Position numbers and translations under genes: made by a program. Positions 6,685 to 62,366 of a stretch of DNA of 64,000 nt are shown here, in pieces. Source of the stretch: a bacterium (GTDB lineage: Bacteria; UBA10199; 2-02-FULL-44-16; JAAZCA01); contig CAXXGI010000002.1 in NCBI GenBank assembly GCA_963674695.2, forward strand, positions 224,001 to 288,000, read 5' to 3'. The number at the start of each line of letters is the position of its first letter. Position 1 is the stretch's first letter. Below the pieces are notes generated by a model. The model was not told the DNA's origin and searched no databases. It saw only the letters and a list, made by a program, of their open reading frames with translations.

Positions 6685-6693
6685 GTTTTATTG

Positions 6694-6774
6694 TTTTGTC
6701 ATTCCCGCGGGGGAGGCGGGAATCTCGATTGTCACAGCACATCGAGATCCCCGCGTTCGCGGGGATGACAAAAA
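6694..6774. repeat. REP-like inverted doublet (GTCATTCCCGC...GCGGGAATC type)
   Basis: Palindromic pair between convergent genes; same family at 7970, 22620, 26971, 45527, 52591, 55516, 62767. Confidence 0.85.
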
Positions 6775-20219: not shown

Positions 20220-20246
20220 CGCAACTTTTCTCCCTAATCGGCGATA
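20220..20246 (+). promoter_or_regulatory. Putative sigma-28-like promoter (CGCA-N18-CGATA)
   Basis: cgcaacttttctccctaatcggcgataa, 27 nt upstream of ATG 20274. Confidence 0.6.
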
Positions 20247-20273: not shown

Positions 20274-22163
20274 ATGCGCCTGTTAGGACCACATCTGCTC
20301 GGCATCGGTCTGCCCGATGGGCTTTCGGGTTCGACCGCGGCGATGGAGCTGAATACGGCACTCAATGCGGTCGTAGCGGAATCGATCGATTCCACCGGGA
20401 TCGATACCTATGTGCCGCCGCAGGAGGATCGACAGGGGCTTTTTGCCGTGACCGATCACGTGCCGTTGAAACCGGTCGTTCATGTCGCGCATGTGCACGA
20501 TGGTAGCGAGGCGGTCGTGACCGTGAACGGGCAGGTCGTACCGACGGTCGCGCAGACGGCGGAAGTTGTCGTCATCGAGGACCCGGAATACGACTACAAG
20601 GCGCTGAACGAAGCTCCGCTCTACGGTGCCTATGATTATTCGAGCAATCCCGTCGAGGGGACGCTCGATCGACCGGTATTTCTGGGTTCGGATGAAGAGG
20701 GGGCCGTTCGCTTTCTGATCGAGGGCGAGATCCTGCGCGACATCCCTGCACGGGGCGGGATCGTCCTGGCCTTCTCGCCGGACGAGAACTCCGACCGGGT
20801 GCGGCCATTCTTTGCCGACGGTCGTCCGGTTGGACTCGACACAGGCGAGCCGCTTCTCATTCGATCTGAAAACGAACCCGACATCGTCTATCGCAACGGT
20901 AAACTCTGGATGCCTTCCTTTGGGCGCGCGCGCATGGATCTGTTGCTCGCGCATTCGGACGGTTGCATCGAGGCGATTCGCCGACGATCGATGAACGAAG
21001 ATGACCTGCGTTTCCAGCGCAACGAAGAGACCGGAACCTTTACCTTTTCGAGCGGGGACGGGCCGATGTTCGATCAGACCGGATATCTGGAGGGATTTCG
21101 GACGGCGGGATATCTTATGGATCCGATCGCACAATCGGAATCCCATTCCTTCTTTCGGTTGAACGATCGTGTCGTAGCAGCCGATGCCGATCGCGGTTGG
21201 CGGATCGAACAGGATCCTAAACGGTGGAGGCGGACGGGCTTCGTTCAAGATGAGGATGAAATTCCTCGCGTTATCACGCGCGGTGGCGAAGCGGCAGTCA
21301 TCTTCGAAGAGCTCTCCGACGGCGATCTGATCGTCGGTCGTTCGGTTGCAGGCGGTCTGCATCCGGCCCGCGCCGAGGGGTGGCGGTTTTTTCGTGGAAT
21401 GAACGATGGACGTGTGCGCATGCTCTCGAAGCGCCAGGTGCGTGCGCGGTTTCGTTCGATAGTTCAAGAGGGTATGGCGTCCGAGTTCGAACGACTGCTC
21501 GAACCCGCGGCCGAGGTGTGGTGGGAGGGGACGATTGCGTCATCCGCAACTGACGGTGAAGATCTGCATCTGCTTCGATTGCGAAACGGGACGTCAAAAC
21601 ATCGCATTGCGGTTCATCTCTCCGCCGGCGATGCCGCATCTACGATGATGATCGCCGGCGTCGAGGTCCTCTTCCGAACGCCTACGGCCGATGAAATACT
21701 GGCGGCGTTCGCGGTGCAGCCGTGGCGATTGCTGCGACGCTTGGCTCTGGTGACCGTGGCGCCGGACATGGAGATCGATCTGAAGGATATGGATGACGAT
21801 TTCGATGCCGCGCGGTGGTACGAGGGTCGAAAGATGCTCGAACTCTTTCCGATCTTCGACGGTGCCCCCCTGGGCAAGGTGGGTGAGATGCAGCGACTGC
21901 CTCGCCTCATCGGGCACGAGCTGGGGCATGCGGTGGATGAAGGGCGTGCGCTGCATCGCCGACTCCTGGCCATGGCCATGACGCTCGACGGCGTGGCGCT
22001 CGATCGCTATCTGCTCAAACATTTTCCGGATGCCCATCACGAGCGTGCGCTGGCCGAGCGCATCGCCGATCTCGTCTCGATTGCGCGCGAGGATCATGAC
22101 GGTCTCATCGCGGCAGCGCCGCACACGGCCGACTTCATCGCGTGGCTGATAAATCGCTCGTGA
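20274..22163 (+). CDS. Orphan protein with C-terminal HExxH zincin-like motif
   Basis: 629-aa ORF, AAGGAG RBS; GHELGHAVD followed by a downstream Glu (ALAERIAD). Confidence 0.7.
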   Translation: MRLLGPHLLGIGLPDGLSGSTAAMELNTALNAVVAESIDSTGIDTYVPPQEDRQGLFAVTDHVPLKPVVHVAHVHDGSEAVVTVNGQVVPTVAQTAEVVVIEDPEYDYKALNEAPLYGAYDYSSNPVEGTLDRPVFLGSDEEGAVRFLIEGEILRDIPARGGIVLAFSPDENSDRVRPFFADGRPVGLDTGEPLLIRSENEPDIVYRNGKLWMPSFGRARMDLLLAHSDGCIEAIRRRSMNEDDLRFQRNEETGTFTFSSGDGPMFDQTGYLEGFRTAGYLMDPIAQSESHSFFRLNDRVVAADADRGWRIEQDPKRWRRTGFVQDEDEIPRVITRGGEAAVIFEELSDGDLIVGRSVAGGLHPARAEGWRFFRGMNDGRVRMLSKRQVRARFRSIVQEGMASEFERLLEPAAEVWWEGTIASSATDGEDLHLLRLRNGTSKHRIAVHLSAGDAASTMMIAGVEVLFRTPTADEILAAFAVQPWRLLRRLALVTVAPDMEIDLKDMDDDFDAARWYEGRKMLELFPIFDGAPLGKVGEMQRLPRLIGHELGHAVDEGRALHRRLLAMAMTLDGVALDRYLLKHFPDAHHERALAERIADLVSIAREDHDGLIAAAPHTADFIAWLINRS

Positions 22164-24448: not shown

Positions 24449-25627
24449 CTACCCCCCGACGAGACCCTTGAGGATATCGCCGGTTCCCTCCACACCGTCC
24501 ATGAACCAGTACTGTACGCCGTCGACAGTGATGGCGACATCCCAGGTGTGAATATCGCTGGCCCTGGCATAGGAGCTGTCTTCACTCAAGATCTTTCCCC
24601 ACGTATTGCTCGGCGAGGGGCGTGTGGCGATAACGATCGTTGCACCCTTATAGATGAAGCTGGCCGTGAGGTCCTTGATTCCGGCGCAGGCGCTGACGAT
24701 CTCTTCGTTCGGCGTGCTCTGAAAGGCATATCCGTCGAACGGCTTGGTAGCCGCACCTCCGCCGGGGAGGCGCTGCATGCAGGAGAATTCGAGCTTCTTT
24801 CCCTTGCGCCCAACCGTGCGCTGATGGTCGAGCGCTTCGCGCAGGAGTTTTTTGATGGAGGCGATCTTTTTGGGGGCCAGCGCCTTCCGGATATCGCGGC
24901 CGTATGCCTTGACGTCTTTATCCTCCACTTTTCGTACACAGCCGCCCGCCGATTCCTTGGCGGCACCGATCACCTTTCCGCCGCAGATGGTGCCCTTTAC
25001 GACGCGACGATGGTCGGGGACGCTGTCGATCTTCCCGCCGGTCGTCACCACCCAGTCGATGCGTTGATCGCCGCTCTTTACCCTGAGGTCGTTGCTCCGC
25101 TGCCACTGCCCTTTGACCTGCTCGCGGGCATCCTTGAAGATGACATAGCGCGAGAACTGAGAGCCTATATCCGGCGGAGCGGTGAACTCCACATAGGTCT
25201 CGCTGTTGGGCATGATGACGACGGAGGTGAGCCCTTTTTGTGTCTGCGGGTGACTCAGCGAGGACTTGTCGTCGGAGGTGCTCACCTGGGGCCGAGCTTC
25301 CTTCCGACTCGCTTTCATCTTCTTTTTCCGACAGGTCTTGGTCAGCCCGTGTTTGCCGTTGATCCTCACCTTCTTGAGGCCTTTCGCATCCTCCACGCTG
25401 CGGAAGAGGCGCGGAATCCATGCCGCACAGGACGAACCCGGCTTGGCGGTGATGGAGGTCTTGAGTCCCGGTCCCGTGAGCGTGACCTTTTTCTTCCCCT
25501 TCTTTTCGAGGATGAAGCACTGGCGCACGAGCGCCTCGCAGGTACACTGAGCCCGTTCCCCAAGCTTCTCACCGAAGGGTTCGCACTTGGGATAAAAATT
25601 CGCTGCTGTTTTTTTGACCTTGCCCAT
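24449..25627 (-). CDS. Orphan basic Cys-rich protein with type-II N-domain (FYPxC)
   Basis: Begins MGKVKKTAANFYPKCEPFGEK; first ~100 aa homologous to the 29754 protein; GGAGAGGGG RBS. Confidence 0.8.
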   Translation of the reverse strand: MGKVKKTAANFYPKCEPFGEKLGERAQCTCEALVRQCFILEKKGKKKVTLTGPGLKTSITAKPGSSCAAWIPRLFRSVEDAKGLKKVRINGKHGLTKTCRKKKMKASRKEARPQVSTSDDKSSLSHPQTQKGLTSVVIMPNSETYVEFTAPPDIGSQFSRYVIFKDAREQVKGQWQRSNDLRVKSGDQRIDWVVTTGGKIDSVPDHRRVVKGTICGGKVIGAAKESAGGCVRKVEDKDVKAYGRDIRKALAPKKIASIKKLLREALDHQRTVGRKGKKLEFSCMQRLPGGGAATKPFDGYAFQSTPNEEIVSACAGIKDLTASFIYKGATIVIATRPSPSNTWGKILSEDSSYARASDIHTWDVAITVDGVQYWFMDGVEGTGDILKGLVGG

Positions 25628-25681: not shown

Positions 25682-25708
25682 TATCGTCCTTTCTCCAAAA
25701 AAGGTGCG
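25682..25708 (-). promoter_or_regulatory. Putative sigma-28-like promoter (CGCA-N18-CGATA)
   Basis: Reverse strand reads cgcaccttttttggagaaaggacgata; a second near-site (GCA-N19-CGATA) lies at 25750-25776. Confidence 0.6.
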
Positions 25709-26948: not shown

Positions 26949-26970
26949 GATTGATGACAAATCCGGCTGT

Positions 26971-27068
26971 TGTCATCCCCGCCCCCGATTCAATCATTCG
27001 AGGGCAGGCTCCAGCGGGGATCTCGATGGGCATTACAAGCGAGACTCCCGCCTGCGCGGGAGTGACAA
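26971..27068. repeat. Composite REP-like doublet inside an outer inverted repeat (gattgatgacaaatcc / ggattttgtcatcaatc)
   Basis: First REP loop carries the insert ccccgattcaatcattcgagggcaggctcca, also present in reverse orientation near 62820-62855. Confidence 0.8.
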
Positions 27069-27137
27069 TCTTGAGTTCCATGAAAATAACAGTGCAGGAG
27101 GATTTTGTCATCAATCTGGTTCTAACGGTATTTTCTA

Positions 27138-28022
27138 TCAATTCCCCTTTTCCATCAGGATCTCATAGAAACAGCTCGCCGCGTCGGTGAGCGCGGCATC
27201 GCGTTTGCGCACGAGGCAGATCGTGCGTTTGAAAGGGTCGCCCTGGATGCGCACGCCGATGGCGCGGCGCTTCGGGATTTCCTCTTCGATGAACGATTGG
27301 GAGAGCAGCGCCACCCCCATGCCGACCTCGGCCAGGCGCACGGCGGCCGAGTTGATGTAGACGTCGATGATCTCGCGCGGGACGATTCCCTCCTTGTGAA
27401 AGACCTCGTCGATGATGCGGCGCGTGCGGCTGCGGCGCGGATAGATGAGCAGCGGATGCTCGGCCAGTGTCTCCAGCGTGATGCGCTTCTTTTTGGCCAG
27501 CGCGTGCGTGCGGGCCACGAGCGCATCGAACCGATCGTGATAGAGGATCTCCTCGTTCAAGAGCGGGTGTGAACGCGCCCCCGCGGAGATGATCCCCAGG
27601 TCGTAGTGTCCGCGCAGGACCCCCTCTTCGATATCCTTCGAGTCGTCCACATCCAGTTGAATTTTCACCTTGGGATAGCGGTCGCGAAACCGCGCCAGCG
27701 CCGGCGGCACGACCGTCTGCGTCGAGGCATCGGTGAGGCCGAGCTTGAGCGTTCCGACCGGGCCGCTGGTCTGTTGGGCAAGCTGGGCGAGCGCCTGCGA
27801 TTCCTCCAGGAGATGGCGCGCCTTGCCCAAAAAGAGGCGACCGAAATCATTCAGCGCCAGGCGTCGGCCGCTGCGATCGAAGAGCTCGCGCCCCACCTCC
27901 TCCTCCAGGCGGGCCAGATGTTGGCTGACCCCCGGCTGGGTCATCCCCAAGCGCTGGGCCGCCCGCGTGGCGGTCCCGTCTTCGGCGACCGCGATAAAGA
28001 TGGTCAGGTCGATGAGGTCCAT
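27138..28022 (-). CDS. LysR-family transcriptional regulator
   Basis: N-terminal HTH (TRAAQRLGMTQPGVSQHLARLEEEVGRELFDR); 294 aa. Confidence 0.95.
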   Translation of the reverse strand: MDLIDLTIFIAVAEDGTATRAAQRLGMTQPGVSQHLARLEEEVGRELFDRSGRRLALNDFGRLFLGKARHLLEESQALAQLAQQTSGPVGTLKLGLTDASTQTVVPPALARFRDRYPKVKIQLDVDDSKDIEEGVLRGHYDLGIISAGARSHPLLNEEILYHDRFDALVARTHALAKKKRITLETLAEHPLLIYPRRSRTRRIIDEVFHKEGIVPREIIDVYINSAAVRLAEVGMGVALLSQSFIEEEIPKRRAIGVRIQGDPFKRTICLVRKRDAALTDAASCFYEILMEKGN

Positions 28023-28175
28023 GATTCCTCCGGCGATTCAATAAGATAGCATTATGTGACCAATCATAACGAATAATTTCATATTATACAACCCCGGTGC
28101 CATACTGGCTTCAAATCAAGCGATCGATTCTCCCTCTTTCCATGAGGGGAAGAGGACCATTTGAGGAGGTGGACC

Positions 28176-28427
28176 ATGTTTAACATTTTAGAGCTGTTGC
28201 TCGGACGGCGCTTTCAGCGAAGCGTCACGTCCGAGACAAAACGAAGGGATGAGGAGCGCGAATTCGTCCGGCGGTATGCCCAGAAAAACCGCTATCCGGC
28301 GATCAAGACGATTCGTGCCGAGACGCTCATCACACCGGATACCTCAAGCGATGACGGCGTTCGCATGCCGTCTCAAAAGCGCACCAAGCGTGCGAGTATT
28401 CGCCGGGGGATGGTGCGTCGCCCCTGA
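28176..28427 (+). CDS. Small basic hypothetical protein divergent from LysR
   Basis: Strong GAGGAGG RBS before ATG 28176. Confidence 0.55.
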   Translation: MFNILELLLGRRFQRSVTSETKRRDEEREFVRRYAQKNRYPAIKTIRAETLITPDTSSDDGVRMPSQKRTKRASIRRGMVRRP

Positions 28428-28700
28428 TGAGGGGTCTGCGAAAGCGATGCACGGGGCTCGGTCCAAGGATCGGGCCCCGATTGCATATAAGCAGTCATTA
28501 TCATCTCTATAAATTCTTATAATTTCCAATTATAAAACGAGTGTGGCAGAATGGGTCTCGTTGATACGGGAACAGACGCAATTAGGCGAACATTCCCAAA
28601 GGGCCCAAAAAGCCCAACCACACACATCCAGGGCGAGCCGCAGGATTTGAATCTCAGATTTTTCGACCGCGCCATTGGAGAAACATTTTGGAGGTAGGCC

Positions 28701-29543
28701 ATGAAGAACCAGACCATGAATACGAACATCGATTTGAACACGATCACCACCAGCACGGAGCCGCTCTATGTGACGCGCGACTACCTGACCGGTACGCTCT
28801 GCCGTGAAGGCCGCTCGACCTTGAGCGACGTCATCGGTATCTATGCGAAGACCGGAAATGATTACGTCCAGGTTTCCAAGGGTATCCTCTTCTATAGCCT
28901 CTATGCCGAGGGAGAGCTCGTCATCGTCGATCAGATCGGCGAGAACCAGACCTTCACCCGTGAGGTCATCGAAGCGTTGCCGTTGAACTTCTTGCCCGAG
29001 GCGTTCACAAGCGTTTGGACGAACACCATTCGCCAGAACGTCACCGCCGGTGCGAATCTCGGACGCAATGATGTATTGAACCTCTGGCGCTCCTTCATGA
29101 TCGAGGCGATGTATGGGAAGGAAAACCTGATCAACGCCACAGGCGTGCCGTTTACCACCGAGATGCACAAGGGCGCGCTCAACGCCTCGCGCGACATCCT
29201 CTGCTATACCCTCTATCATGAGGGCGTGCATCAGGTGTTCGATTTCGTCGGAACGGGCAACGGAACCACGCAGGAGAACGTGCTGAACACGCCGATGGAA
29301 TTTCTGCCGACAGAGCTCAAGACCGAATGGCGCAAGACGGTGCTCGGTCGCATTCCGACCGGTGCTGCGACCACGCGCGACGAGGTCATGAACATCTGGA
29401 AGAACTTCTGTCTGCACACGGTCTATGAAGGAAACGACGCCATCGTGAACACCTATGCCAATATCGGCAAGGACGCGTCGAGTTTCGCCCGCATGGTCGG
29501 CATCTGCGGACCGATCGTTCCCACCCGGAACGCCGTGATGTAA
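28701..29543 (+). CDS. Orphan protein with two internal ~60-90-aa repeats
   Basis: GGAGG RBS; repeats P.NFLP..FTSVW...GRNDVLNLWRSF and PMEFLP..LKTEW...TRDEVMNIWKNF; hairpin plus T-run downstream. Confidence 0.8.
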   Translation: MKNQTMNTNIDLNTITTSTEPLYVTRDYLTGTLCREGRSTLSDVIGIYAKTGNDYVQVSKGILFYSLYAEGELVIVDQIGENQTFTREVIEALPLNFLPEAFTSVWTNTIRQNVTAGANLGRNDVLNLWRSFMIEAMYGKENLINATGVPFTTEMHKGALNASRDILCYTLYHEGVHQVFDFVGTGNGTTQENVLNTPMEFLPTELKTEWRKTVLGRIPTGAATTRDEVMNIWKNFCLHTVYEGNDAIVNTYANIGKDASSFARMVGICGPIVPTRNAVM

Positions 29544-29568
29544 GGCAGGCATGAACGTCCCGTATACG

Positions 29569-29642
29569 CACCGATACGCCGGTCATCCGTTTGGCTCCAA
29601 ACCCCAAACCCCCACGGATGGCCGGCGATCGGTGTTTTTTTG
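29569..29642 (+). terminator. Long hairpin followed by T-run
   Basis: caccgat-cgccggtcatccgt pairs with acggatggccggcg-atcggtg, then ttttttt. Confidence 0.7.
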
Positions 29643-29689
29643 TGCAAGCCACGTCAATTTTACCGAGCCAAACAATGTTGAAAAAGAGG

Positions 29690-29715
29690 GCATCATTTTG
29701 TGGGTGTCTCCGATA
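29690..29715 (+). promoter_or_regulatory. Putative sigma-28-like promoter (GCA-N18-CGATA)
   Basis: gcatcattttgtgggtgtctccgataa upstream of 29754. Confidence 0.5.
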
Positions 29716-29753
29716 ACTCTAGTGTTGAGGGGGATACGCCACAGGAGCATATG

Positions 29754-31397
29754 ATGGGCAACGTCAAACGCAGACTGGTGAAAGATTTCTACCCGCCGTG
29801 TGAACAGCTCGGCGAAAAAAAAGGAGAGCCCTTCGAGTGCGCCTGCAAGGTGCTCGTTCGCCAGTGCTTTGGCAAGAAGAAGAAGGGGCAGAAGAACGTT
29901 TCGCTCGATGGGGCATCTCGATCCTTTTCGATCGAGTCGGGCATTCCCTGTGCCGAGGCGGCTCCGGGTCTCTTTAACGGAGTCAGCCGGTGGCAGGATA
30001 TTAAAACGAATGTGCGCATCGACGGCAAGCACGTCCTGACGAAGGCATGCAAGGCGAAGGTGAAGACGAAGGAACGAAAGAAGAAGAAAAAGGCGCCCGC
30101 GGCCGAAGGGGTCGCTTCCAAGGAAAAACCGTCCGAGGAGCGGAAACCGCAAAAGAGCAAACCACGGGATGTCGCGCCCGATCTCGATAGAGAAGAAGGG
30201 GGGCCGGCGCAAGAGACGATCCTCGACACGAATTTGTCCGTGCCGAAATCACGAGGCGTTCTCTTCTCCCCGCTCGCACGCGAGCTGTGGCAAGAATACG
30301 CCCTTGCGCATCTCACACAGCTGCATGCGAATCACTCTATTCGCCCGAAGGCGGTCGGTACGATGGGCGCCGCACAGGATCGTGATCAGAATCATGCCAT
30401 CGGCAGTGCACGGGTCGGTGTGCAGGCCTTCTCACTCTGGAACGATCACTTTTCCTCTTCGGCGGACGTCGCCTTCGCGGCCGGAAAGACCGCTGCGGGC
30501 TTTCGGCGCACGAACGATCCGGGGACGTTTCGCCTCGATGCTTCCGGCGACGGCACCTTCATGGAGGTCGACGAGCTCTCATTCGAGGTCATCTGGGCGG
30601 ACGAGCTGCGCAAGAAAGAGCATGTCTATGCGGTGCACGCCCGCGCGGGTGCGGCCGACGATATCGGCAAGGGCATCGACTATGGCCTCTCGCACAGCGC
30701 CGGCTGGTGGGGCGGCACGAAGCTCATCGGCTCCGGCGTCGGTGCGGGTATAGCACCTGAATTCATCCTGCATGACGGTGCGCTGAAGATCGGGGGCTCG
30801 GTCGGCCTGATCGACGAGGAGAGCGGATCGGCAGAGACGAAGAAGGACGGGAGCGCCGTGCAGGGCTCGGCGCACATCCAGGGGGATGCGATCGCAGGTC
30901 AGCTGGACCTGGGCCTTGCCTTCCACGGATCGGGCGGCTTCGCCGGTACGGGCGCCGGGGCCGTGAAGGGACAACAGCTCTATACGGTCGACGCCGGGAT
31001 CGGCGGCAATTGGAGAGACACCGTGCATCGCGTGACGGCCAATGTTCGCTATCATCGCTTCGAGTCGAAGGGGGATCTGGACTTCAACCAATACGCCGGT
31101 TCAGTCGGCTATCGCGTTCTCTACGGGGGCTACTCGTTCATCTTCCACGGGACGGCGCTCGCCTCGTTCGTCCGGCGCGATGAAGGCGCAACGGAGCGGG
31201 TCGTCTCATCGGACGGGAAGACGACCGTGCCGATGCTGGACAACACTGGCATGGAGGTGACGCTTCGACCCGGGATCATGCTCAGGGGGATCGGTATCAG
31301 ACCCGAGATCTCGCTGATGGGGATGGGTCATGACGGAATGGATTTTGCCTGGTCCGGTATGCTCACCGTTGGCATTGGGCCGGAGGTCTTTGAATAA
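29754..31397 (+). CDS. Type-II Cys/Lys-rich N-domain fused to a predicted beta-barrel-like C-domain
   Basis: Begins MGNVKRRLVKDFYPPCEQLGEK; Lys-rich linker; C-terminal Gly/aromatic alternating strands (VTANVRYHRF, YAGSVGYRVLY, WSGMLTVGIG); no Sec signal. Confidence 0.8.
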   Translation: MGNVKRRLVKDFYPPCEQLGEKKGEPFECACKVLVRQCFGKKKKGQKNVSLDGASRSFSIESGIPCAEAAPGLFNGVSRWQDIKTNVRIDGKHVLTKACKAKVKTKERKKKKKAPAAEGVASKEKPSEERKPQKSKPRDVAPDLDREEGGPAQETILDTNLSVPKSRGVLFSPLARELWQEYALAHLTQLHANHSIRPKAVGTMGAAQDRDQNHAIGSARVGVQAFSLWNDHFSSSADVAFAAGKTAAGFRRTNDPGTFRLDASGDGTFMEVDELSFEVIWADELRKKEHVYAVHARAGAADDIGKGIDYGLSHSAGWWGGTKLIGSGVGAGIAPEFILHDGALKIGGSVGLIDEESGSAETKKDGSAVQGSAHIQGDAIAGQLDLGLAFHGSGGFAGTGAGAVKGQQLYTVDAGIGGNWRDTVHRVTANVRYHRFESKGDLDFNQYAGSVGYRVLYGGYSFIFHGTALASFVRRDEGATERVVSSDGKTTVPMLDNTGMEVTLRPGIMLRGIGIRPEISLMGMGHDGMDFAWSGMLTVGIGPEVFE

Positions 31398-31410
31398 AGA
31401 GGACACGCAT

Positions 31411-32394
31411 ATGGGAAACGATATCACCAAACCCCGCCAGGCGCGGGCGGCATGCAAAGAGACGTTCACAAAGGGGAGCGCAAAACGCCGCCTCTGTTTG
31501 AAAAACGTCACGGCCTGTTCGAAGGCGAACAAGGCCGACGCGGGCGACGATGCGGCCCAAGATGAGTATGTGGCTTGTCTAAACGGTGTCGTGACGGCAG
31601 CGGAGAAGGGGGCGGGCCTCTCCCGCAACAATGCGCCATCGCGTCCGGTGAAAAAGAAGAAAAAGCCGAGACGGGGAGCGGATGCCGATCGTTCACGCAA
31701 GCGGAAGGGACGGTCTCATCGCGCGCGTCAGCAAAAGACGCCGCGCGCATCGGAGGGGAGTTTCATCTCGCGCTGGACCAGTGGCGGGCTGAACGTGGAG
31801 GAGGCCCTCCTCGATATCAAGGAGAGCCGGCACTATGCCCGTTATAGCAACCGCGACGATGAGTCGCTCGTCTGTGCTCTCGAGATCACGCCGAGCCGGA
31901 AGCTCAACGTCGACTGGTGTGCGCAATACGATCAGGAGAAAAAGGAGCTCAAGGCCAAGACGACTTCACCGGCGGTGCTGCAATACGTCAAGTCGTTCAG
32001 TATCTTCTTCTATGGGCGGTACGGTGACCGACTCCAATCGATCTTCACGAAAGAGGAGGCCGAGCTCAAAGAGGAAGGCCTCATGACGCCGTGGGCGCTG
32101 GCCAAGCGCTATCGCGTGCGCGGGCGCTGCTATGGTTCCGGCCCCTTCAGCGGGGCGACGCTGGGCAACATTCAGGACTGGCTCGATCCAAAGGCCTGTC
32201 CAGAAGCCGAGGTGCGCTTCTCCGTCGGAGGCTTGAGCGTCACGGCGGGTTGGACGGTCGGTGAAAAGGATTCCGAGTTGGCCGAGCTCGTCGGCATCGA
32301 GAGCGATCGCAAGACCCCCGATATCGTTTTGGAAGGGGAGATGATTCCGACGATCACGCTCGTCGATGTCGAATTGGAACTGGAAGGATTGTAA
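31411..32394 (+). CDS. Type-I (PRQAR-Cys) paralogue 1
   Basis: Begins MGNDITKPRQARAAC...CLKNVTACSKANKADA; GAGGA RBS. Confidence 0.85.
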   Translation: MGNDITKPRQARAACKETFTKGSAKRRLCLKNVTACSKANKADAGDDAAQDEYVACLNGVVTAAEKGAGLSRNNAPSRPVKKKKKPRRGADADRSRKRKGRSHRARQQKTPRASEGSFISRWTSGGLNVEEALLDIKESRHYARYSNRDDESLVCALEITPSRKLNVDWCAQYDQEKKELKAKTTSPAVLQYVKSFSIFFYGRYGDRLQSIFTKEEAELKEEGLMTPWALAKRYRVRGRCYGSGPFSGATLGNIQDWLDPKACPEAEVRFSVGGLSVTAGWTVGEKDSELAELVGIESDRKTPDIVLEGEMIPTITLVDVELELEGL

Positions 32395-32420
32395 CAGAAA
32401 CGGAAAGGGAGGATAACAAC

Positions 32421-33422
32421 ATGGCAAGCAAAATCAACAACCCCAGACAGGCGCGGGTGGCGTGTCGGGAAAAGTTCGAAAAGGGGAGCGACGAACGCCT
32501 GCTCTGCTTGAAAAACGTCAAGGCCTGCACGAAGGCGAACAAGGCCGACGCGAGCGAGTTCGTCTTTGCAAGCGATGCGGGAAAAGAGGTCACCAGGCAG
32601 AGCTTCAAAGGCTGTCTGCGCTATGCCCCGACGGCGGCACGCAAGGGCATGTCGCTGGTGAAGGATCAGGGCAGCACGCCGCGCGCGGAGAAGAAGCCCT
32701 CGAGGAAGCGGCGTGGGCCGAAGCGCAGGTCCGCTCCTTCGGATGGGGGTCGCACATCGGTGTCGACACTTCGGCCGGAGAAGGTGGAATTTGCATTCAA
32801 CAATAAAAGTAAAGTTCGCGCACTCTATCGCGACAGCGCTCATGGCGACATGGTCTGCTCATTTCGTCTCCTGGGCGATGGAGGTGTGAAGGGATATAAA
32901 TCGCTTAAGGGGGCAAGTCCTCGCTTGGATAGCTGTCGCCCTCACGGTAAAGGAAAAGGGGATGCACCGATAGCGCTGGCCAAGCGCGAGCGTGGTGCGC
33001 TTACGCGATCGGCCCGGAAATTTATTGGAGAGTCAGCCGAGGCGATGGAGAAGAATTTCGGTCTCTTCGATAGATCGCTTGGTGCGCGTTCGATCGATTC
33101 CTTTTGGAAACAGGCGAAGCGCTATGGAGTCAAGGGGAGGAAGTCGGGCGAAGATGTATGGACCAAGATCCGTTCCCAGCAGGAGCTCAAGGGACGCCTG
33201 GTGGGGAAGCGCCCGGAGGTCGGACATGTTCGTATGATGCTTGGCGGAACCGAGGCCATCCTAGGGTGGGGGGCCATGTTCTCGAAGGAAGCCGGAAAGA
33301 ACCTCGCGGAAGGCACATATCCCGGGTGCCTGGATGTGGTCCTGACCGGTTCGAATATGCCGATAACGGTGTTGGTCGATCCCGAAGAGCTCTGCTGTGA
33401 TAAGGTAAAGTGGATTGACTGA
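32421..33422 (+). CDS. Type-I (PRQAR-Cys) paralogue 2
   Basis: Begins MASKINNPRQARVAC...CLKNVKACTKANKADA; GGAGG RBS. Confidence 0.85.
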   Translation: MASKINNPRQARVACREKFEKGSDERLLCLKNVKACTKANKADASEFVFASDAGKEVTRQSFKGCLRYAPTAARKGMSLVKDQGSTPRAEKKPSRKRRGPKRRSAPSDGGRTSVSTLRPEKVEFAFNNKSKVRALYRDSAHGDMVCSFRLLGDGGVKGYKSLKGASPRLDSCRPHGKGKGDAPIALAKRERGALTRSARKFIGESAEAMEKNFGLFDRSLGARSIDSFWKQAKRYGVKGRKSGEDVWTKIRSQQELKGRLVGKRPEVGHVRMMLGGTEAILGWGAMFSKEAGKNLAEGTYPGCLDVVLTGSNMPITVLVDPEELCCDKVKWID

Positions 33423-33432
33423 TTGAAGGGCA

Positions 33433-36090
33433 TCATTCATCAATCGGTCGCTCTGTCTCGCTATAAACATCCTCATAATAAGCGGCCGATTCCTGGACCT
33501 TCTCGTCCGGATGTGCAGCCATGACCTGAATGATCCTCCGCAACGCATTTCGGCGTGCTCTATTGCCGTTATAGATCTCATCGAGAAGGCCCTCAGCTTC
33601 ATCGATGGCCTTGGCCGGGATGCGAGACATATTCTCTTCCAGCCATTCTACGCCGATCTCTGAGGGTAGGCGAAAGGCGATCTCGACGCGCACGCGCATC
33701 GCTGTCGAGCGATCACGCATCTTCGCTAGAATTCGCTGTTGCAGACGAGGTTCAAGCGCATCGAACCGCGATGCGAGGTTGCGCAGCGCGCCAATACGCG
33801 CCTTATCCTGCGCTGTTCTATCTTCATCGAAGGCGATCGTTTCTAGATCCTCCACGTTGTGAATTTTCTCCATCGCCCGCTGTACTATCTTGCCGGAGTT
33901 TGGCCCGTATGTTTTCCAATTGAATGGATCGAGGTGAAATGGGTCAAAGCGTGGATGCCGCCACATGGCCTCTCGCGCGCTCTCTCGAAGATCGGGGTCG
34001 GAACTCTCTGCGAGTTTGACGAGGATGGGAACGAACGCCTCGCGATGGGGGATCTCCTCGATGGCCTCCTCCCGGATGATCTCCGGTGTTTCCGGTGAAC
34101 AGAGGCGTGAGAAGTATTCAACATCTCCCGAGAAGGGAACACGCGAGAGCAGGGAGATGAGTCGTGAGGATGCGAGCTTCTTCTCATCATTGGAGGTGCG
34201 CAATGTCTCGATTCGCGAGATGATTGTCGTGGCGAGCTGCTTGTTCTCCTGTGGTGTAGCCTCAGACGCCATCCAGTGCTCATCGAGGAATCGGAACATC
34301 TCCGTCGTAAGAACCGGTGCCGATGCGAAAAGCTGCGCGACAAGGTGATGCGCCCGACGGGGGCTCACGTTCTGACGAATCGTGTCACCCCAGAAATCGA
34401 ATGCCCTGTCTCTGGCGAGGCGCAGCTTGAGAGGTACGTGCGGTGAGTGCATAAACGCCTCGATGGCACGCGCGCGTTCATCGATGTCCTTCCACGGAAG
34501 ATCATCCTCGCCTGCCAATCGTTTTTGAAGATTCGGCTCGATCGTGTTGTCGAAGACCATCGCGATCAACTCGCGACCGAATTGGGCGCGGGCGGCGTCG
34601 TTTGCAGCAACGATACCGCGCACAAATGCCGATGGCTTTCGCTGGGCGATGGCCACTCGTGCGATTTGGCGCAGCTCGGGATCGTTCACATCGACAGAGC
34701 TCCCCGCTTTGAATTGAGTGAAGGGATCGTTCGGCAACTCCCCATCGCGCAGCGCTCGCATGAGGACGGCGCGACATGCAAGCGCCAGTTTTTCTTCATC
34801 ATGACTCCATTCCTCTTCGTGCTTTAAGAGCCTTGCCGCAATGAGCGCGCGCAGTGCGAGCGGGAGTTCTTCGTTCTCCAATCTCCCATGAAGGGCAGTT
34901 TCTGCAGCACCGCTCAACCAGTTTCGGTGCTTCACGATGCCCATGAGTTCAGAGATCGCCATATCCTGCGCTGCCAGGGGGCGCGTAGCATCATCGACGA
35001 TGCCGATCAGAAACGCGGTGCGCTCATTCATGGGGAGCGTCTGGGCGAACACCCGTACTGCTGCGACTTGATCGTTGGGTGAGCCCTTCTCGAGCCAGCG
35101 CCTCGCGCGCTTTTCCGGATCTCGCTCGGAAAGTGTCTGGCGCGTTGCCCGATGGATGTCGTTTGGCTGTCCGAGGTCGATTCCCTCTTTGGGCAGTCCC
35201 CATCCGAAGAGGCGCAGATGGGGGATGGGCGTGCGTCCATCCAGAGGTGCGAATTGCGACGGATCTTTGTTTTCGGCGATGACGAAGCGATAGCGTCCAT
35301 CGGCCTGCGCGTGAAAAGCGGGTTTGTTCTCTTGGCACGCATCGCACCAGGGCGCGGAGAAGAGGACGACGGTGTAGAGCCCCGCCTCGGGTTTGGCCAG
35401 CAGCGTATCGAGCGCGTCCGGCGTTGCCACCGAGATGACCGCAGCATCGAACGGTTGTTCATCGATGGCAGCGCCCGTAAAATAGACTGAGAGCGAATAC
35501 TCCGGGACGTTGCTCTCCCGGGTCGCCCAGTCGAAGCGTTCGCGCCATGAGATGACGCCGTCGCCGTCGTCGTCGGCTTTCTTCGATGGATTCCAGAAAC
35601 GCGGGGCGAAGGGGTGACAGAAATCCGTGAGCCCCTTCCCTGAGAGCGTGATCAATCGCACGGTGGGATCATCGGCGAAGAGCGTGGCAAAACTTCCGCT
35701 CATGCACTCGTCCATCACCACCGTCGTCTCACAGGGAAGGCGCACGATATCGGTGACAAACTCCGAGGCATAGAGCTTTCGATCGCTGAGGACGACGCCG
35801 GGCTCGCCATCTCGAATGGCGCCGTGGCCCGTGACATAGACCACGACCTCGTCGTCGGCGTCGACCATCGCTCCATCGGTGAGTTTTCCGATGGCGGCCA
35901 ACGCGGTCTTGGCGTCGCCGTCTTCGTAATATTCATCCGGTGAGACGACGATCACCTCATAGCCTTGGCGGGTGAGATCGGCGCGCGCGAGGTCGACGTT
36001 CTCCTGGTGGTGTGGGGCGCTATCCCCATTGATGATGAGGGCATAGCGACGCACGCGTCCATCGCCGGTGGTGTGAGAAGGGGTGACCAT
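33433..36090 (-). CDS. Caspase/legumain-like (clan CD) peptidase + EF-hand-like loop + thioredoxin domain + HEAT-like helical region
   Basis: YALIING, VVVYVTGHG (His), VMDECMSG (Cys), ADDDGDGVISWRE, LFSAPWCDAC; long helical C-half (e.g. SSDPDLRESAREAM). Start uncertain (36090 or 36174). Confidence 0.8.
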   Translation of the reverse strand: MVTPSHTTGDGRVRRYALIINGDSAPHHQENVDLARADLTRQGYEVIVVSPDEYYEDGDAKTALAAIGKLTDGAMVDADDEVVVYVTGHGAIRDGEPGVVLSDRKLYASEFVTDIVRLPCETTVVMDECMSGSFATLFADDPTVRLITLSGKGLTDFCHPFAPRFWNPSKKADDDGDGVISWRERFDWATRESNVPEYSLSVYFTGAAIDEQPFDAAVISVATPDALDTLLAKPEAGLYTVVLFSAPWCDACQENKPAFHAQADGRYRFVIAENKDPSQFAPLDGRTPIPHLRLFGWGLPKEGIDLGQPNDIHRATRQTLSERDPEKRARRWLEKGSPNDQVAAVRVFAQTLPMNERTAFLIGIVDDATRPLAAQDMAISELMGIVKHRNWLSGAAETALHGRLENEELPLALRALIAARLLKHEEEWSHDEEKLALACRAVLMRALRDGELPNDPFTQFKAGSSVDVNDPELRQIARVAIAQRKPSAFVRGIVAANDAARAQFGRELIAMVFDNTIEPNLQKRLAGEDDLPWKDIDERARAIEAFMHSPHVPLKLRLARDRAFDFWGDTIRQNVSPRRAHHLVAQLFASAPVLTTEMFRFLDEHWMASEATPQENKQLATTIISRIETLRTSNDEKKLASSRLISLLSRVPFSGDVEYFSRLCSPETPEIIREEAIEEIPHREAFVPILVKLAESSDPDLRESAREAMWRHPRFDPFHLDPFNWKTYGPNSGKIVQRAMEKIHNVEDLETIAFDEDRTAQDKARIGALRNLASRFDALEPRLQQRILAKMRDRSTAMRVRVEIAFRLPSEIGVEWLEENMSRIPAKAIDEAEGLLDEIYNGNRARRNALRRIIQVMAAHPDEKVQESAAYYEDVYSETERPIDE

Positions 36091-36222
36091 ATATAATAGG
36101 AGTATCGACCGATCGAGGGGGCAGAGTTGCGTGTGATGTGAGAGGTGAGCGACAGTCGATCTGTCGCGCCGCACGTCAATTTGACATGGCGCATTTTCAC
36201 CCGTTGCATCATAGCAATTACA

Positions 36223-36249
36223 CGCAACATTCTGTGTTATTCGCCGATA
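36223..36249 (+). promoter_or_regulatory. Putative sigma-28-like promoter with canonical GCCGATAA -10
   Basis: cgcaacattctgtgttattcgccgataa upstream of 36285. Confidence 0.7.
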
Positions 36250-36284
36250 AAAAAGGTAAGGGGTCTGCAGAGGAGAAGACGGTC

Positions 36285-37664
36285 ATGGGAAATGAAATCA
36301 ACAGCCCCCGCCAAGCGCGGGTGGCCTGCCGAAAAGTGTTTGAAAAAGGAGGCGACGGGCGTCGCCTCTGTTTGAAAAACGTCACGGCCTGTTCGAAGGC
36401 GAACAAGGCCGACGCGAGCGAGTTCGTCTTTACAAACAATGCGGGAAAAGAGGTCACCAAACAGAGCTTCAAAGGCTGTCTGCGCTATGCCCCCAAAGCG
36501 GCGCGCAAGGGGATGTCGCTGCGTGGCGAGGAAGGCGATGCGCCGAAGACAAAGAAGAAGCGCAAGAAATCCTCCCGGCGTTCATCGAAGAAGGGCACAC
36601 CTGCGCGTGAGTCGAGCAAGCGCGACAGGATATCACGAAAGAAGGGCGCTCAGAAAAAACCGGAAAAGATTGAACGATTTATTCGAGGAAAGAATGGACA
36701 GCGCGAGCCAAACCCCCGTTCCTGTGCAAACACCGATCGGTCCGTCGTGACACAGATGCATTCGAAACTCGATTTCGTTCACGGCACTGAGTTCGTCGAC
36801 CAGATGACGATGGGAATGCACATGAGTAAGTGCAGTGAGCTGGAAGCGGGGAGCGAGGACTGCGGTTTTTGCCTCCAGGCGGTCAACGAGTGCATGCGCG
36901 CGGCCGTCTTCGGTAATCGGTTTGCGCTCTACAAGGCGGACGGAACGGTGGAAGCATTGAGTTTCATAACAGAGGATGCCAATGACTGTATCGATCACTG
37001 GCGTGCGTTGAAAAGAGATGAGGGGAGCCACATCGGTCTGTCGCGCGTGAAGCTCTCCAGCGATGACATCGATGCGGCGGTCAAGGAGGTGTTCGTGGAG
37101 TTTTCCACGAGGCGCACCTCCGTTCTGATCGAGCGCGGCGGCCACGATCTGATCTGTCAGCAGGATGCAAAAAAACCCTCGGAATGGCAGTGTCATGAGG
37201 GCGGGAAGTCGGTGATGGTCGCGCCGAAGGGGACGTTCGACATCGATATCGGCCGGGATGATACAGAGAACCCCCTCAGTTCCTCGCTCGGTTTCCTCCT
37301 GTCGGCATTGACGAGCGTTGACCTCGAACGGGCCAGTGGCGCCCAGAGCGTTGCCCTCTCGCTGATCACCGCCATGCAGGCAGACCCGAAGCTGGATATC
37401 GCCTGGGTCTATGAGAGTGCCAAGGCGAAGGAGAGAAGGCCAAGAGATGTGAACGAAGTGCGTGCCGCCATCAGGGGCGAGGGGCGCTTCAAGAAGGGGA
37501 GCGTCCAGTTCGATCTGGGCGTGGGCAAGATCTTCATGGGCAATCGCATCGCCGGGGATCTCTCGGATGTCGTCAAGGCCGAAGGCTTGAAAGACGATCC
37601 CAAAAAGATCGACATCGCCATCAGCGACGGCCGCCGCACGATCATCCTCAAGGATGTGCGATGA
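36285..37664 (+). CDS. Type-I (PRQAR-Cys) paralogue 3, with a degenerate second Cys module
   Basis: Begins MGNEINSPRQARVAC; AGGAG RBS; 54-bp exact identity with the 31411 gene. Confidence 0.85.
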   Translation: MGNEINSPRQARVACRKVFEKGGDGRRLCLKNVTACSKANKADASEFVFTNNAGKEVTKQSFKGCLRYAPKAARKGMSLRGEEGDAPKTKKKRKKSSRRSSKKGTPARESSKRDRISRKKGAQKKPEKIERFIRGKNGQREPNPRSCANTDRSVVTQMHSKLDFVHGTEFVDQMTMGMHMSKCSELEAGSEDCGFCLQAVNECMRAAVFGNRFALYKADGTVEALSFITEDANDCIDHWRALKRDEGSHIGLSRVKLSSDDIDAAVKEVFVEFSTRRTSVLIERGGHDLICQQDAKKPSEWQCHEGGKSVMVAPKGTFDIDIGRDDTENPLSSSLGFLLSALTSVDLERASGAQSVALSLITAMQADPKLDIAWVYESAKAKERRPRDVNEVRAAIRGEGRFKKGSVQFDLGVGKIFMGNRIAGDLSDVVKAEGLKDDPKKIDIAISDGRRTIILKDVR

Positions 37665-37682
37665 GCCGGAGGAGAGTTTCCC

Positions 37683-38216
37683 ATGGGAAATGAGATTACG
37701 ACACCGCGCCAGGCGCGTATCCAGTGTCGGCGCATGTTCGATGGCGATGAGGAGAAGCGCTGTCTGGACAACGTCAAGGTCTGCACGAAGAAGTACAAGG
37801 AAAGTGCAAAGGATGCGGATACCAAAGATCGGTACGAGGCCTGCCTGACCGATGCGGTGAAGGCCGTTGAGGAGGGCCGGTCGCGGCAGCGCCCATCGAG
37901 CACAACGGAAAAGCCGAAGAAGAAGGCTCCAAAACAAGATCAGACACAAAAAACAGACACCGCCGATACATCGAAGGGCAGGCGTCAGCGGATCGAAGAA
38001 TGCCTGCGCGCATGCGTCCGATGGGTTGAGCAGGCCGGGAAGAAAAACGAATGGGAAAAAGACTGTCAGTATTATTGCCCAATCCACGCCTCCGATGCGG
38101 AGGGGACGGCCACATTCATCGAATGCCTGGAGAATGATACGGCTTCGAGGGCGTACCGAAATACCATGAGTACGTGCAGTCAGAACGCACGCAAGGCGGA
38201 GCGTCGGCAGAAATAG
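37683..38216 (+). CDS. Type-I (PRQAR-Cys) paralogue 4, short, with a different Cys-rich C-domain
   Basis: Begins MGNEITTPRQARIQC...CLDNVKVC; GGAGGAG RBS. Confidence 0.85.
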   Translation: MGNEITTPRQARIQCRRMFDGDEEKRCLDNVKVCTKKYKESAKDADTKDRYEACLTDAVKAVEEGRSRQRPSSTTEKPKKKAPKQDQTQKTDTADTSKGRRQRIEECLRACVRWVEQAGKKNEWEKDCQYYCPIHASDAEGTATFIECLENDTASRAYRNTMSTCSQNARKAERRQK

Positions 38217-38339
38217 TTCTCGAGATGAGAGATGATGTCAGACAGAGCTGACAAAGGTCTTCTTCCTTCGACAGACTCAAGATAAATGGTTTTGTTTCAA
38301 CGCATTGACTTCCCCCGGGAGCGGTCGTAGAACCCCCTT

Positions 38340-42650: not shown

Positions 42651-43634
42651 ATGAAGCTCTGCTCCGAACATCGGGAGCAGTTAACGCTCGCCACCGCCTA
42701 TCGTTTTTCGCAGGCCATCGTCGTTCGCGACGAGGCCAACCCGTTTACGCTCTATCGTCTCTTTCAGGATACCTTCCGCCGCCGCACCACCATCGATCCC
42801 ATCCGAACCGAGGATGATCGCATCTATGTCCTCTTCAACAATTCGATGCGCTATTTTGCCCAGACCATCCTTTTCGGAGGGCGCTTGCCCTTGCCGCATC
42901 AGTGGATCTGCGGGAGGGCGAATGGGGAGCCCGAGCAGGGTCTCCCCTTGAAGGGGCGCCCGGGGTTGGCGGCGGTGGAAGTGGGCTATGGTGCACTCAT
43001 GGGTGCGCGTCTGGATCACAGCCGATTTCATTACATGAGTCCGGATGCGCCGCTGATCGCCGGCGGCCTGGAGCTTGTGGGGGCCAACCTTGAGGGGGCT
43101 GATTTTTCCGGGGCGATTCTGGCGGGGAGCAATTTCTCCGGCGCGATTCTGGCGGGGAGCAATTTCTCCGGCGCGAACCTGACCGACGCCATCCTCGACG
43201 GGGCGTTCATGCTCGATGCGGTTTTGGTGAAGGCCATCCTGCGGCGGGTGTCCATCGATCGAGGCACGCAGGTGACGCGCGAGCAGTTGCGCAGTGGCAC
43301 GCAACGTTCCGGCGTAGTGCAGCAATGGAACCACCTGCATCCGGAAGCGGAGCCGCTGCCGGTGCTCTCGTTCTCGGAGTTACAACAGCAGTACCGTGGC
43401 CCTCAGTCGAAGGAGCCTCCGCGTGCGTCCTATTCCGGGTGGAATGAGATAGTCGAAAATACCCCTGTGCAGACCGATGTTTCGATCGACGAGATGAATG
43501 AGATGGATAGCATGGAAGCAGCGATGGACGCCCCTCCCGGGTTTGTCGGTATGATGGAAGAGATCGCGCCCGATCCCTGGTCCGACCTTGGCCTGTGTTT
43601 TTGCGTGAACGGCTCCCCGCAAAAACTTTTCTGA
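42651..43634 (+). CDS. Pentapeptide-repeat protein with acidic C-terminal tail
   Basis: ANLEGADFSGAILAGSNFSGAILAGSNFSGANLTDA; includes a near-perfect 30-nt tandem duplication. Confidence 0.8.
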   Translation: MKLCSEHREQLTLATAYRFSQAIVVRDEANPFTLYRLFQDTFRRRTTIDPIRTEDDRIYVLFNNSMRYFAQTILFGGRLPLPHQWICGRANGEPEQGLPLKGRPGLAAVEVGYGALMGARLDHSRFHYMSPDAPLIAGGLELVGANLEGADFSGAILAGSNFSGAILAGSNFSGANLTDAILDGAFMLDAVLVKAILRRVSIDRGTQVTREQLRSGTQRSGVVQQWNHLHPEAEPLPVLSFSELQQQYRGPQSKEPPRASYSGWNEIVENTPVQTDVSIDEMNEMDSMEAAMDAPPGFVGMMEEIAPDPWSDLGLCFCVNGSPQKLF

Positions 43635-43729
43635 CGATCGAAGCGAAAGACAATACAATGTAAAACTGTCTGTTGTGTCACCTCTCTCCTTCCTGCTAGT
43701 GAATCTCCTGGGGGAAAAGGAGGCACACG

Positions 43730-62339: not shown

Positions 62340-62366
62340 CGCAACTTTTTTCTGTCCGTGCCGATA
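62340..62366 (+). promoter_or_regulatory. Putative sigma-28-like promoter upstream of PilZ
   Basis: cgcaacttttttctgtccgtgccgatag, CGCA-N18-CGATA spacing. Confidence 0.65.

Follow-up and report, generated by a model that had tools for sequence, protein, structure and literature searches.

A genome-restricted family of modular Cys/Lys-rich proteins behind a putative sigma-28-type promoter box, and its possible link to a non-flagellar type III secretion system

We analysed a 64,000-nucleotide stretch of DNA (the window; contig CAXXGI010000002.1 of assembly GCA_963674695.2), which corresponds to C2:224001–288000 of a 3.03-Mb bacterial genome in three contigs (C1, C2 and C3) that was scored 100% complete. 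The window contains several members of a protein family in which a common Cys-rich N-terminal domain (N-domain) and a Lys/Arg-rich linker precede unrelated C-terminal tails. Given that this modular family is restricted to one genome, has recombined between copies, lies in part in an island, is preceded by a sigma-28-type promoter box and occurs together with a non-flagellar type III secretion system (T3SS) gene cluster that includes a sigma factor gene, we propose, with a probability of roughly 45%, that the family represents late, T3SS-linked exported or effector-like proteins. A preliminary description made from the nucleotide sequence had suggested an effector-like or surface-protein system; the effector-like reading gains indirect support from the box before each operon and from the presence of a non-flagellar T3SS in the genome.

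A modular protein family confined to one genome

The four open reading frames (ORFs) described beforehand (31411, 32421, 36285 and 37683; genes are named by their leftmost window position) are real at the coordinates reported, with a Shine–Dalgarno-like purine run 6–9 nt 5′ of each ATG. As claimed, they have in common an N-domain (approximately 75 aa, mean column identity 64%) followed by the basic linker. Positions M1, I5, P8–R12 (PRQAR), C15, C29, C36 and C56 are invariant in the four-gene alignment (first-sequence numbering). Iterative searches of all six-frame ORFs in the genome with a hidden Markov model (HMM) of the N-domain converged on eight members (type 1; E values of 1e-39 to 2e-16), namely the four in the window and C2:82879, C2:91439, C1:971930 and C3:205738, with 67% identity between the two additional C2 copies. 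Seven of the eight begin with Met-Gly, compared with 5.9% Gly at position 2 among 2,387 crudely called genes. The same design of N-module, basic linker and different tail is repeated outside the HMM-defined family, given a second type of N-module in 29754 and 24449 (MG(N/K)VK start, six or seven Cys within the aligned part, then a K-rich stretch); BLASTP similarity between these two proteins (E = 2e-23, 43% identity) is restricted to the first ~131–140 residues and their tails are unrelated. The family genes of the window are as follows.

24449..25627, minus strand: type 2, 392 aa, MGKVKK start; found by a scan for the MG/Cys/polybasic pattern
29754..31397, plus strand: type 2, 547 aa, MGNVKRR start; Cys-rich N-module, KERKKKKK linker, C-terminal half Gly-rich and, by eye, beta-rich; heads the 29754–31411–32421 run
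31411..32394, plus strand: 327 aa; short-form N-domain, linker with 18 Lys/Arg in 40 aa, class-A C-domain
32421..33422, plus strand: 333 aa; the sole MA start, long-form N-domain with hairpin insert, class-A C-domain
36285..37664, plus strand: 459 aa; long-form N-domain, linker with 20 Lys/Arg in 40 aa, unique orphan C-region (class B)
37683..38216, plus strand: 177 aa; short-form N-domain, linker, short Cys-rich tail (class C); begins 18 nt after the end of 36285

Across the ten type-1 and type-2 members, the linker spans approximately 40 aa with 13–21 Lys/Arg (13–20 for the four genes described beforehand), and the proteins have a net charge of +5 to +32 and a Lys plus Arg content of 13–22%. 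The tails fall into at least four unrelated orphan C-terminal classes over the eight type-1 members. The preliminary description had assigned one shared C-domain to three genes; this holds for 31411 and 32421, which are colinear over their full length (class A; 30% identity, E = 1e-25), and fails for 36285, for which BLASTP aligned the N-terminal part only and the class-A HMM found no match. The two C2 copies are likewise colinear, and the C3 copy is a marginal match to the class-A HMM (E = 0.033). The family is in part a set of full-length colinear paralogues (31411, 32421 and the two C2 copies) and in part a set of N-domains with tails of their own (36285, 37683 and the C1 copy), including the short Cys-rich tail of 37683, which had correctly been set apart. 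A degenerate second Cys module reported in 36285 did not hold up (no BLASTP match; hhalign in register, at E = 0.1; HMM i-Evalue of 95). The modular logic itself—a conserved N-module, a basic linker and unrelated tails—is more general than first claimed.

Database searches agreed with the earlier statement that the proteins belong to no known family. Pfam returned no family for 31411, 32421, 36285 or 29754 and sub-threshold noise for 37683, and NCBIfam gave no match above noise for these five genes. A profile search of 1.84 billion representative proteins yielded 15 matches at E ≤ 1e-3, of which six (P0007 among them) span the full N-domain and are all encoded in this genome. Of the remaining nine (P0006 and P0008–P0015), the three inspected (P0006, P0008 and P0011) proved to be repeat proteins; their similarity is confined to the second half of the profile, is spread over as many as 12 weak stretches and was treated as compositional. 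No N-domain match was obtained in any of 40 relatives from the same family, order and class. Word-based searches returned only 32421 and its paralogue 36285 for full-length 32421, and only the queries themselves for the C-terminal parts of 36285 and 29754; a related-loci search of genome contigs with the C1 member found no match, nor did the ESM Atlas contain a usable match for 36285 or for the C-terminal part of the C1 member. As far as these searches reach, the protein family is confined to this genome and its N-terminal fold is without a recognisable relative.

The family genes are constrained coding genes under purifying selection. In the two C2 copies, the sole pair for which it could be measured, the ratio of nonsynonymous to synonymous substitution rates (dN/dS) was 0.25 overall (0.17 in the N-domain, 0.40 in the linker and 0.21–0.28 in the tail), so that this pair gives no sign of diversifying selection (0.17–0.40), and the third-position GC content was 0.67–0.74. 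A family of 8–10 genes with no relative in about 15 billion predicted proteins and with clear purifying selection makes a good target for structural and functional work.

Recombination between copies and insertion as an island

Two members carry the same 54-nt tract:

31489..31542 and 36363..36416, plus strand: two identical copies of a gene-conversion tract, in 31411 and 36285

The 54-bp identity noted in the preliminary description is real: the N-domain DNAs of the two genes, at 65% identity overall, share no longer identical run, and not one of 10,000 shuffles of the alignment columns produced a run of this length. Past the tract, 36285 resembles 32421, again as described (81% nucleotide identity; 84% over 238 nt). 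Because of the identical tract we conclude that the copies have recombined through a short gene conversion, and the claim of mosaic N-domains stands. Public contigs (three DNA runs, one study) end exactly at the tract and show no convincing strain variation over the stretch. One contig of run X2 begins at 36432–36461 with five A>G differences that equal the bases of 32421 and then runs as 36285, which may be due either to the way the repeat was assembled or to a conversion variant that exists in the population.

Five of the window members lie in an insertion, with the sixth (24449) just outside:

26949..38339: 11.4-kb lineage-specific island between an hpnH-like radical-SAM gene and a PNP_UDP_1 (hpnG-like) gene

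The phosphorylase gene begins at 38340. In the three nearest named relatives of the hpnH-like gene (loci L008–L010), the PNP gene lies within about 180 bp of hpnH, and tblastn detected no island gene in these loci, which together indicate that 26949–38339 was inserted. The family is a clean example of how a repertoire can be built, with one small N-module of confidently predicted fold, at least four unrelated tails, gene conversion and an island in a conserved gene block.

Predicted structure of the N-domain and absence of export signals

AlphaFold2 (AF2) modelling of the N-domain alone from an eight-sequence alignment gave a mean predicted local distance difference test score (pLDDT) of 90.5 and a predicted template modelling score of 0.78. 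The elements are helices at residues 8–18, 24–41 and 62–74 and strands at 47–50 and 56–59, so that the domain is confidently predicted to be a three-helix bundle with or without a beta-hairpin. The hairpin corresponds to a 9-residue insert in 32421, 36285 and the three C1/C2 copies that is missing from 31411, 37683 and the C3 copy. In the model, C15 lies in helix 1, C29 and C36 two turns apart in helix 2, and C65 in helix 3; these placements on adjacent antiparallel helices probably allow two disulfide staples, C15–C29 and C36–C65. Twin-Cx9C (CHCH) and CxxC zinc-finger readings were ruled out by the Cys spacing (x13, x6 and x19–28). A search with Foldseek against the PDB found nothing at E ≤ 0.001 for the N-domain model, and the best match of a wider structural search (Z = 5.3) was to generic helical bundles and uninformative. 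The full-length model of 31411 was poor outside the N-domain (pLDDT below 50 for residues 73–140 and 198–327, that is, the linker and most of the tail), and Foldseek found nothing for it at E ≤ 0.001.

The earlier observation that the proteins lack Sec/Tat signals was borne out by a hydropathy scan of the ten members, which found neither a hydrophobic N-terminus (best 10-aa Kyte–Doolittle mean within the first 40 residues of ≤1.28, compared with 3.6 for a lipoprotein signal of the same genome) nor a transmembrane span (19-aa maximum of ≤1.26). Gly2 is present in nine of the ten, and position 6 is T or N in four (31411, 36285, 37683 and the C3 copy) and E, V, R, K or N in the others; the eukaryotic N-myristoylation motif comprises Gly2 and a small or hydroxyl residue at position 6.

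A sigma-28-type promoter box and its regulon

All five operon heads of HMM-defined members are preceded by CGCAAC-N14-GCCGA(T/C)A, located 35–49 nt 5′ of the ATG in otherwise unrelated surrounding sequence. The boxes found in the window, together with an orphan gene behind one of them, are listed below.

20220..20246, plus strand: one-mismatch box preceding 20274–22163
20274..22163, plus strand: candidate regulon member, a 629-aa signal-less orphan with an HELGH zinc-protease-like motif near its C-terminus
25682..25708, minus strand: CGCACC-N14-GACGATA (two mismatches), about 50 nt upstream of the start of 24449 at 25627
29690..29716, plus strand: variant box GCATCATTTT...TCCGATAA, 37 nt upstream of 29754 and its run
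36223..36249, plus strand: exact CGCAAC-N14-GCCGATA, 35 nt upstream of 36285
62340..62366, plus strand: exact box preceding 62419–62739 (plus strand), which encodes a 106-aa protein that is PilZ-like by eye (RRYPR ... NLSCGG)

The paralogue 24449 also has the GCATCATTTT word, further upstream. In the genome, the strict box occurs 27 times with a 14-nt spacer, compared with 0.52 expected from the product of word frequencies, 9 times with N15 and 11 times with N16; other spacers between 8 and 21 nt gave 0–2 each. The box is found in 39 of 41 genomes of the class, with 0–2 occurrences per genome for a reversed control. Its downstream half, GCCGA[TC]A in all 27 strict sites, matches the sigma-28 −10 element GCCGATAA, which the available text of PMC12784957 gives as the common consensus, along with a 14-nt distance between the −35 and −10 elements of Pseudomonas aeruginosa fliC. 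We infer that the box is a sigma-28-type promoter, and read it as the putative target of the FliA/WhiG-like sigma factor described below. A literature search of titles and abstracts found no description of such a box, or of a FliA regulon with a non-flagellar T3SS, in Myxococcus or Myxococcales.

Among the 47 boxes with spacers of 14–16 nt, 32 are followed within 200 nt by an ORF of 90 aa or more; by a crude cut-off, 24 of the encoded proteins lack a hydrophobic N-terminus and 8 have one. Pfam assigned RHS repeats, M23, S8 and S41 peptidases, thrombospondin-type repeats and a PPDK_N-like domain among 20 non-family box proteins, and found nothing for 9. A signal-less M23 peptidase of the regulon starts with MGEITITP, near the MGNEITTP of the family, and a signal-less S8 subtilase with a box of its own lies directly upstream of the C1 family member. 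The N-terminal word 'EI[TN]' occurs in 3 of the 24 signal-less regulon proteins compared with 10 of 2,387 genes, numbers that are too small to use. The PilZ-like protein behind the exact box at 62340 hints at a cyclic di-GMP link. In one relative (G001), 23 of 38 boxes were inspected; 14 had an ORF, 10 of these encoded proteins without a hydrophobic N-terminus, and none was family-like. The regulon is class-wide and rich in lineage-specific signal-less proteins and lytic enzymes.

The same relative has four near-identical boxes, CGCAACAATTTGCCAA(T/A)TCTGCCGATA, one with ATCC replacing AATT, at distances of 4–6 kb (locus L130, G001:C3:52000–71900). Our crude ORF rule finds a gene behind only one of the four; the spacing hints at another family of box-driven paralogues, arrayed in tandem.

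A FliA/WhiG-like sigma factor within a non-flagellar T3SS cluster

The best FliA/WhiG-like gene of the genome is C3:8530–9399 (best model TIGR02479, 132.4–132.7 bits), ahead of three other sigma-70-family matches. It is the sole FliA/WhiG-like sigma factor in the genome, is conserved in 40 of 41 genomes and lies inside a T3SS cluster (C3:4400–18300) with homologues of SctJ, SctL, SctN, FliO, FliP (SctR) and FliQ (SctS), together with YscO-like, FliK-like, FliM/FliN-like (SctQ-like) and TPR proteins. A single FHIPEP gene is found away from the cluster at C1:140970, beside secA. Searches of the genome found no flagellin or rod/hook domains, and the T3SS is, judged by this gene content, non-flagellar. 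Markers of type VI (T6SS) and type IV (T4SS) secretion systems and of contractile sheaths (VipB, VirB4 and sheath proteins) had no match in the genome. The cluster has the same order in G003, a relative of the same family. A complex prediction for the N-domain with the TPR protein of the cluster scored 0.00, which gives no verdict and is evidence neither way.

A homologue of a peptidase-like/thioredoxin protein of the window (33433–36174, see below) lies inside the T3SS cluster of G003, between the sigma gene and sctJ (L104, G003:C20:59000–72000; 5516–6757, minus strand); the closest own-genome copy is at C2:340453–341238, outside the T3SS cluster.

Interpretation of the family

Under the proposed reading, the family operons would be transcribed from the CGCAAC-N14-GCCGATA promoter by the FliA/WhiG-like sigma factor of the T3SS cluster and would form part of a 'late' regulon made up mainly of signal-less orphans and hydrolases. 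The proteins would be exported through, or together with, the T3SS-like machine; the N-domain they share would act in export, docking or target binding, with the tails as diversified cargo.

Several observations weigh against this proposal. The sigma factor falls under the TIGR02479 cut-off (about 132 compared with 189.6 bits), and the −35 word of the box (CGCAAC with a T-rich run) is unlike the TCTAAAG (PMC12784957) and TAAAGWWY (PMC8762339) forms given in the available text of these sources for known sigma-28 promoters. Both the sigma factor and the box are near-universal in the class (40 and 39 of 41 genomes, respectively), and their co-occurrence is therefore not discriminating. Position weight matrix scans of C3:1–20000, the SctV region and the G003 cluster found no box; with no box before T3SS structural genes, the tie to the T3SS rests on the position of the sigma gene. 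The needle family PF09392 had no match (it was barely detected in control genomes too), and the cluster contains no secretin, the three secretins of the genome being elsewhere. The regulon includes eight proteins with Sec-like signals, the PilZ-like and PPDK_N-like proteins and one box inside dnaG, and at least one of its 24 'signal-less' proteins (C1:557113) looks by eye like a lipoprotein; with such a mixed regulon, a protein behind the box need not be a T3SS substrate. A T3SS signal is typically disordered, whereas the AF2 model has the N-terminus folded from residue 8 onwards. Next to the family genes we recognised no gene resembling one for a chaperone, and no route across the outer membrane was identified.

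A bolder form of the proposal, which we consider doubtful, holds that the box marks the cargo of an ancestral-type, needle-less, non-flagellar T3SS across the class, with the Cys4/polybasic family as the fast-evolving, recombining effectors of this lineage and the N-domain as the export or docking module. In a further variant, the N-terminal Gly and the polybasic stretch may serve lipidation, or membrane or nuclear targeting, in a eukaryotic victim. If true, the box would be a sequence-level handle on the substrates of such machines, and effector discovery in the class could be reduced to a simple genome scan for the box. The analysis is of value chiefly for this proposed connection, which can be tested, between a promoter box and the cargo of needle-less T3SS machines.

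The strongest competing explanation, unlikely in our view, is that the proteins are cytoplasmic, late-stage nucleic-acid-binding or regulatory proteins of a developmental sigma-28-like regulon, in which the linker binds DNA, RNA or polyphosphate and the Cys4 bundle acts in redox or metal sensing or in oligomerisation. Their strongly basic composition without an export signal would fit such a role, as would the presence of cytoplasmic types (PilZ-like and PPDK_N-like) in the regulon. In Chlamydia, sigma-28 reportedly drives the late gene hctB. Chlamydia, which has a T3SS and no flagella, also shows that a sigma-28 regulon can occur in such a bacterium; the consensus there is TAAAGWWY-N11/12-RYCGAWRN (PMC8762339, available text). 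However, the four genes matched no histone-like or DNA-binding Pfam family at E ≤ 1, single Cys on adjacent helices without CxxC look, in the model, more like disulfide staples than a metal site, and four unrelated tails, a one-genome family and gene conversion would be more typical of exported or conflict proteins.

Somewhat less likely again is export or surface display by a different path, be it outer-membrane vesicles, lysis, a pilus-type machine or some system not yet known, with transcriptional timing as all that the family has in common with the T3SS. The regulon mixes Sec-dependent secreted proteins (RHS, TSP3-repeat lipoproteins, S41 and S8) with signal-less ones, one box follows a pilMNOPQ-like cluster (by eye) with a secretin, and the T3SS cluster itself has neither a needle match nor a secretin; the needleless T3SS* of Myxococcus xanthus is described in the available text of PMC12075869 as cooperating with a Tad pilus. 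Against these points stand the absence of T6SS, T4SS and contractile-sheath markers from the genome and of a prepilin-like or other recognisable targeting signal from the family.

We also considered that the family proteins are substrates of neighbouring cysteine peptidase and thioredoxin-fold proteins, which would process the linker or the N-terminal Gly and manage the four Cys. The gene concerned lies between the two family gene pairs of the window:

33433..36174, minus strand: 885–913 aa, signal-less; weak clan-CD (C13-like) peptidase region, WCxxC thioredoxin fold, helical HEAT/ARM-like tail

At two loci (window positions 31411–38216 and L081, G000:C2:78000–95000), plus-strand family genes flank minus-strand genes for clan-CD-type peptidase and WCxxC thioredoxin proteins; at the second these are a C25 peptidase, a 927-aa protein of unknown type and a 639-aa thioredoxin-fold protein, and the thioredoxin regions of the two loci are alike (E = 3e-7). 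The C1 member, moreover, follows the S8 subtilase that has its own box. This explanation is nevertheless improbable: homologues of the C13-like/thioredoxin protein turn up in differing surroundings in 15 of 40 relatives, the loci inspected in 11 relatives showed no Cys/polybasic gene nearby, no box precedes 33433–36174, and the peptidase assignment is sub-threshold (Pfam C13, PF01650, 16.4 bits, E = 0.0071, under the 22.8-bit cut-off; His/Cys motifs by eye only). The peptidase part had no PDB sequence match, and the Trx, HEAT and Arm Pfam matches of the protein are weak (PDB thioredoxin, E = 7e-4).

A classical polymorphic toxin system, with an N-terminal trafficking domain, a C-terminal toxin and a cognate immunity gene, shares with the family the conserved N-terminal module, the variable C-termini, the clustering and the recombination between copies, but is very improbable because Pfam recognised no toxin domain in any C-terminus and there is no room for immunity genes (consecutive family genes are 13–26 nt apart, with no small co-directional ORF after them), and the proteins contain no T6SS, type VII secretion system, contact-dependent inhibition or Rhs-type part or other known carrier or secretion domain.

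Comparison with known systems

The design principle, in which tails are exchanged on one N-module and a dedicated sigma factor controls an effector-type regulon, is already known from T3SS effectors and polymorphic toxins. Stavrinides, Ma and Guttman (2006) are said to have termed 'terminal reassortment' the formation of T3SS effectors with a common N-terminal secretion/translocation region and different C-terminal domains. The family resembles such effectors in its lack of a signal peptide, its N-module on unrelated C-termini, its recombining paralogue clusters, its lineage restriction and the presence of a T3SS in the genome. It differs in that no sequence or fold match to effector N-regions was found (best Z of 5.3) and in that the N-domain is predicted to be a folded Cys4 bundle rather than a disordered signal with a chaperone-binding region.

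Plant pathogens coordinate their T3SS and effector genes through HrpL, an alternative sigma factor, and its hrp box (PMC5263251, available text). The likeness here lies in a dedicated alternative sigma factor and a conserved two-block promoter box on scattered effector-type genes; unlike HrpL, the sigma factor is FliA/WhiG-like (group 3) rather than of the extracytoplasmic function type, the box was not found before T3SS structural genes, and the link between sigma factor and box is presumptive. With the late regulons of sigma-28 (FliA) the system shares the −10 element GCCGATA(A), the 14-nt spacer of P. aeruginosa fliC, a sigma gene encoded together with T3SS-type export genes and, as in the Chlamydia case, an organism without a flagellum. 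It departs from them in its −35 element (CGCAAC(T)TTT rather than TAAAG), in a sigma factor under the family cut-off and in targets that are orphans and hydrolases rather than flagellar or chemotaxis genes.

By gene content rather than phylogeny, the T3SS resembles the M. xanthus T3SS* and the ancestral 'Myxo' type of non-flagellar T3SS (PMC3459982, available text) in that a sorting platform and export apparatus are present, while neither a needle nor, inside the cluster, a secretin could be recognised. The gene flanking the island has its nearest named relatives in metagenome-assembled genomes labelled Myxococcales or Deltaproteobacteria. Effectors of the needleless T3SS* are spoken of as 'potential' in the available text of PMC12075869, a gap that the present family could fill.

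Neighbouring genes

The island contains two further genes:

27138..28022, minus strand: LysR-family regulator (Pfam HTH_1 and LysR_substrate) at the left island edge, not found in loci L008–L010
28701..29543, plus strand: orphan of 280 aa with an internal two-fold repeat (by eye), no family match and no box

The latter gene lies in the part of the window with the lowest GC content (0.543 for 28001–30000), and its product proved not to be related to two paralogues of ~220 aa encoded ahead of the C3 member. A gene at C2:81506–82798 (L005, 104–1396, plus strand; G000), upstream of the C2:82879 member, encodes a Cys-rich protein whose tail (GCS...hydrophobic...RRMR) we take to resemble a MYXO-CTERM sorting signal. 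Beyond the island, 42651–44791 (plus strand) encodes two adjacent pentapeptide-repeat proteins.

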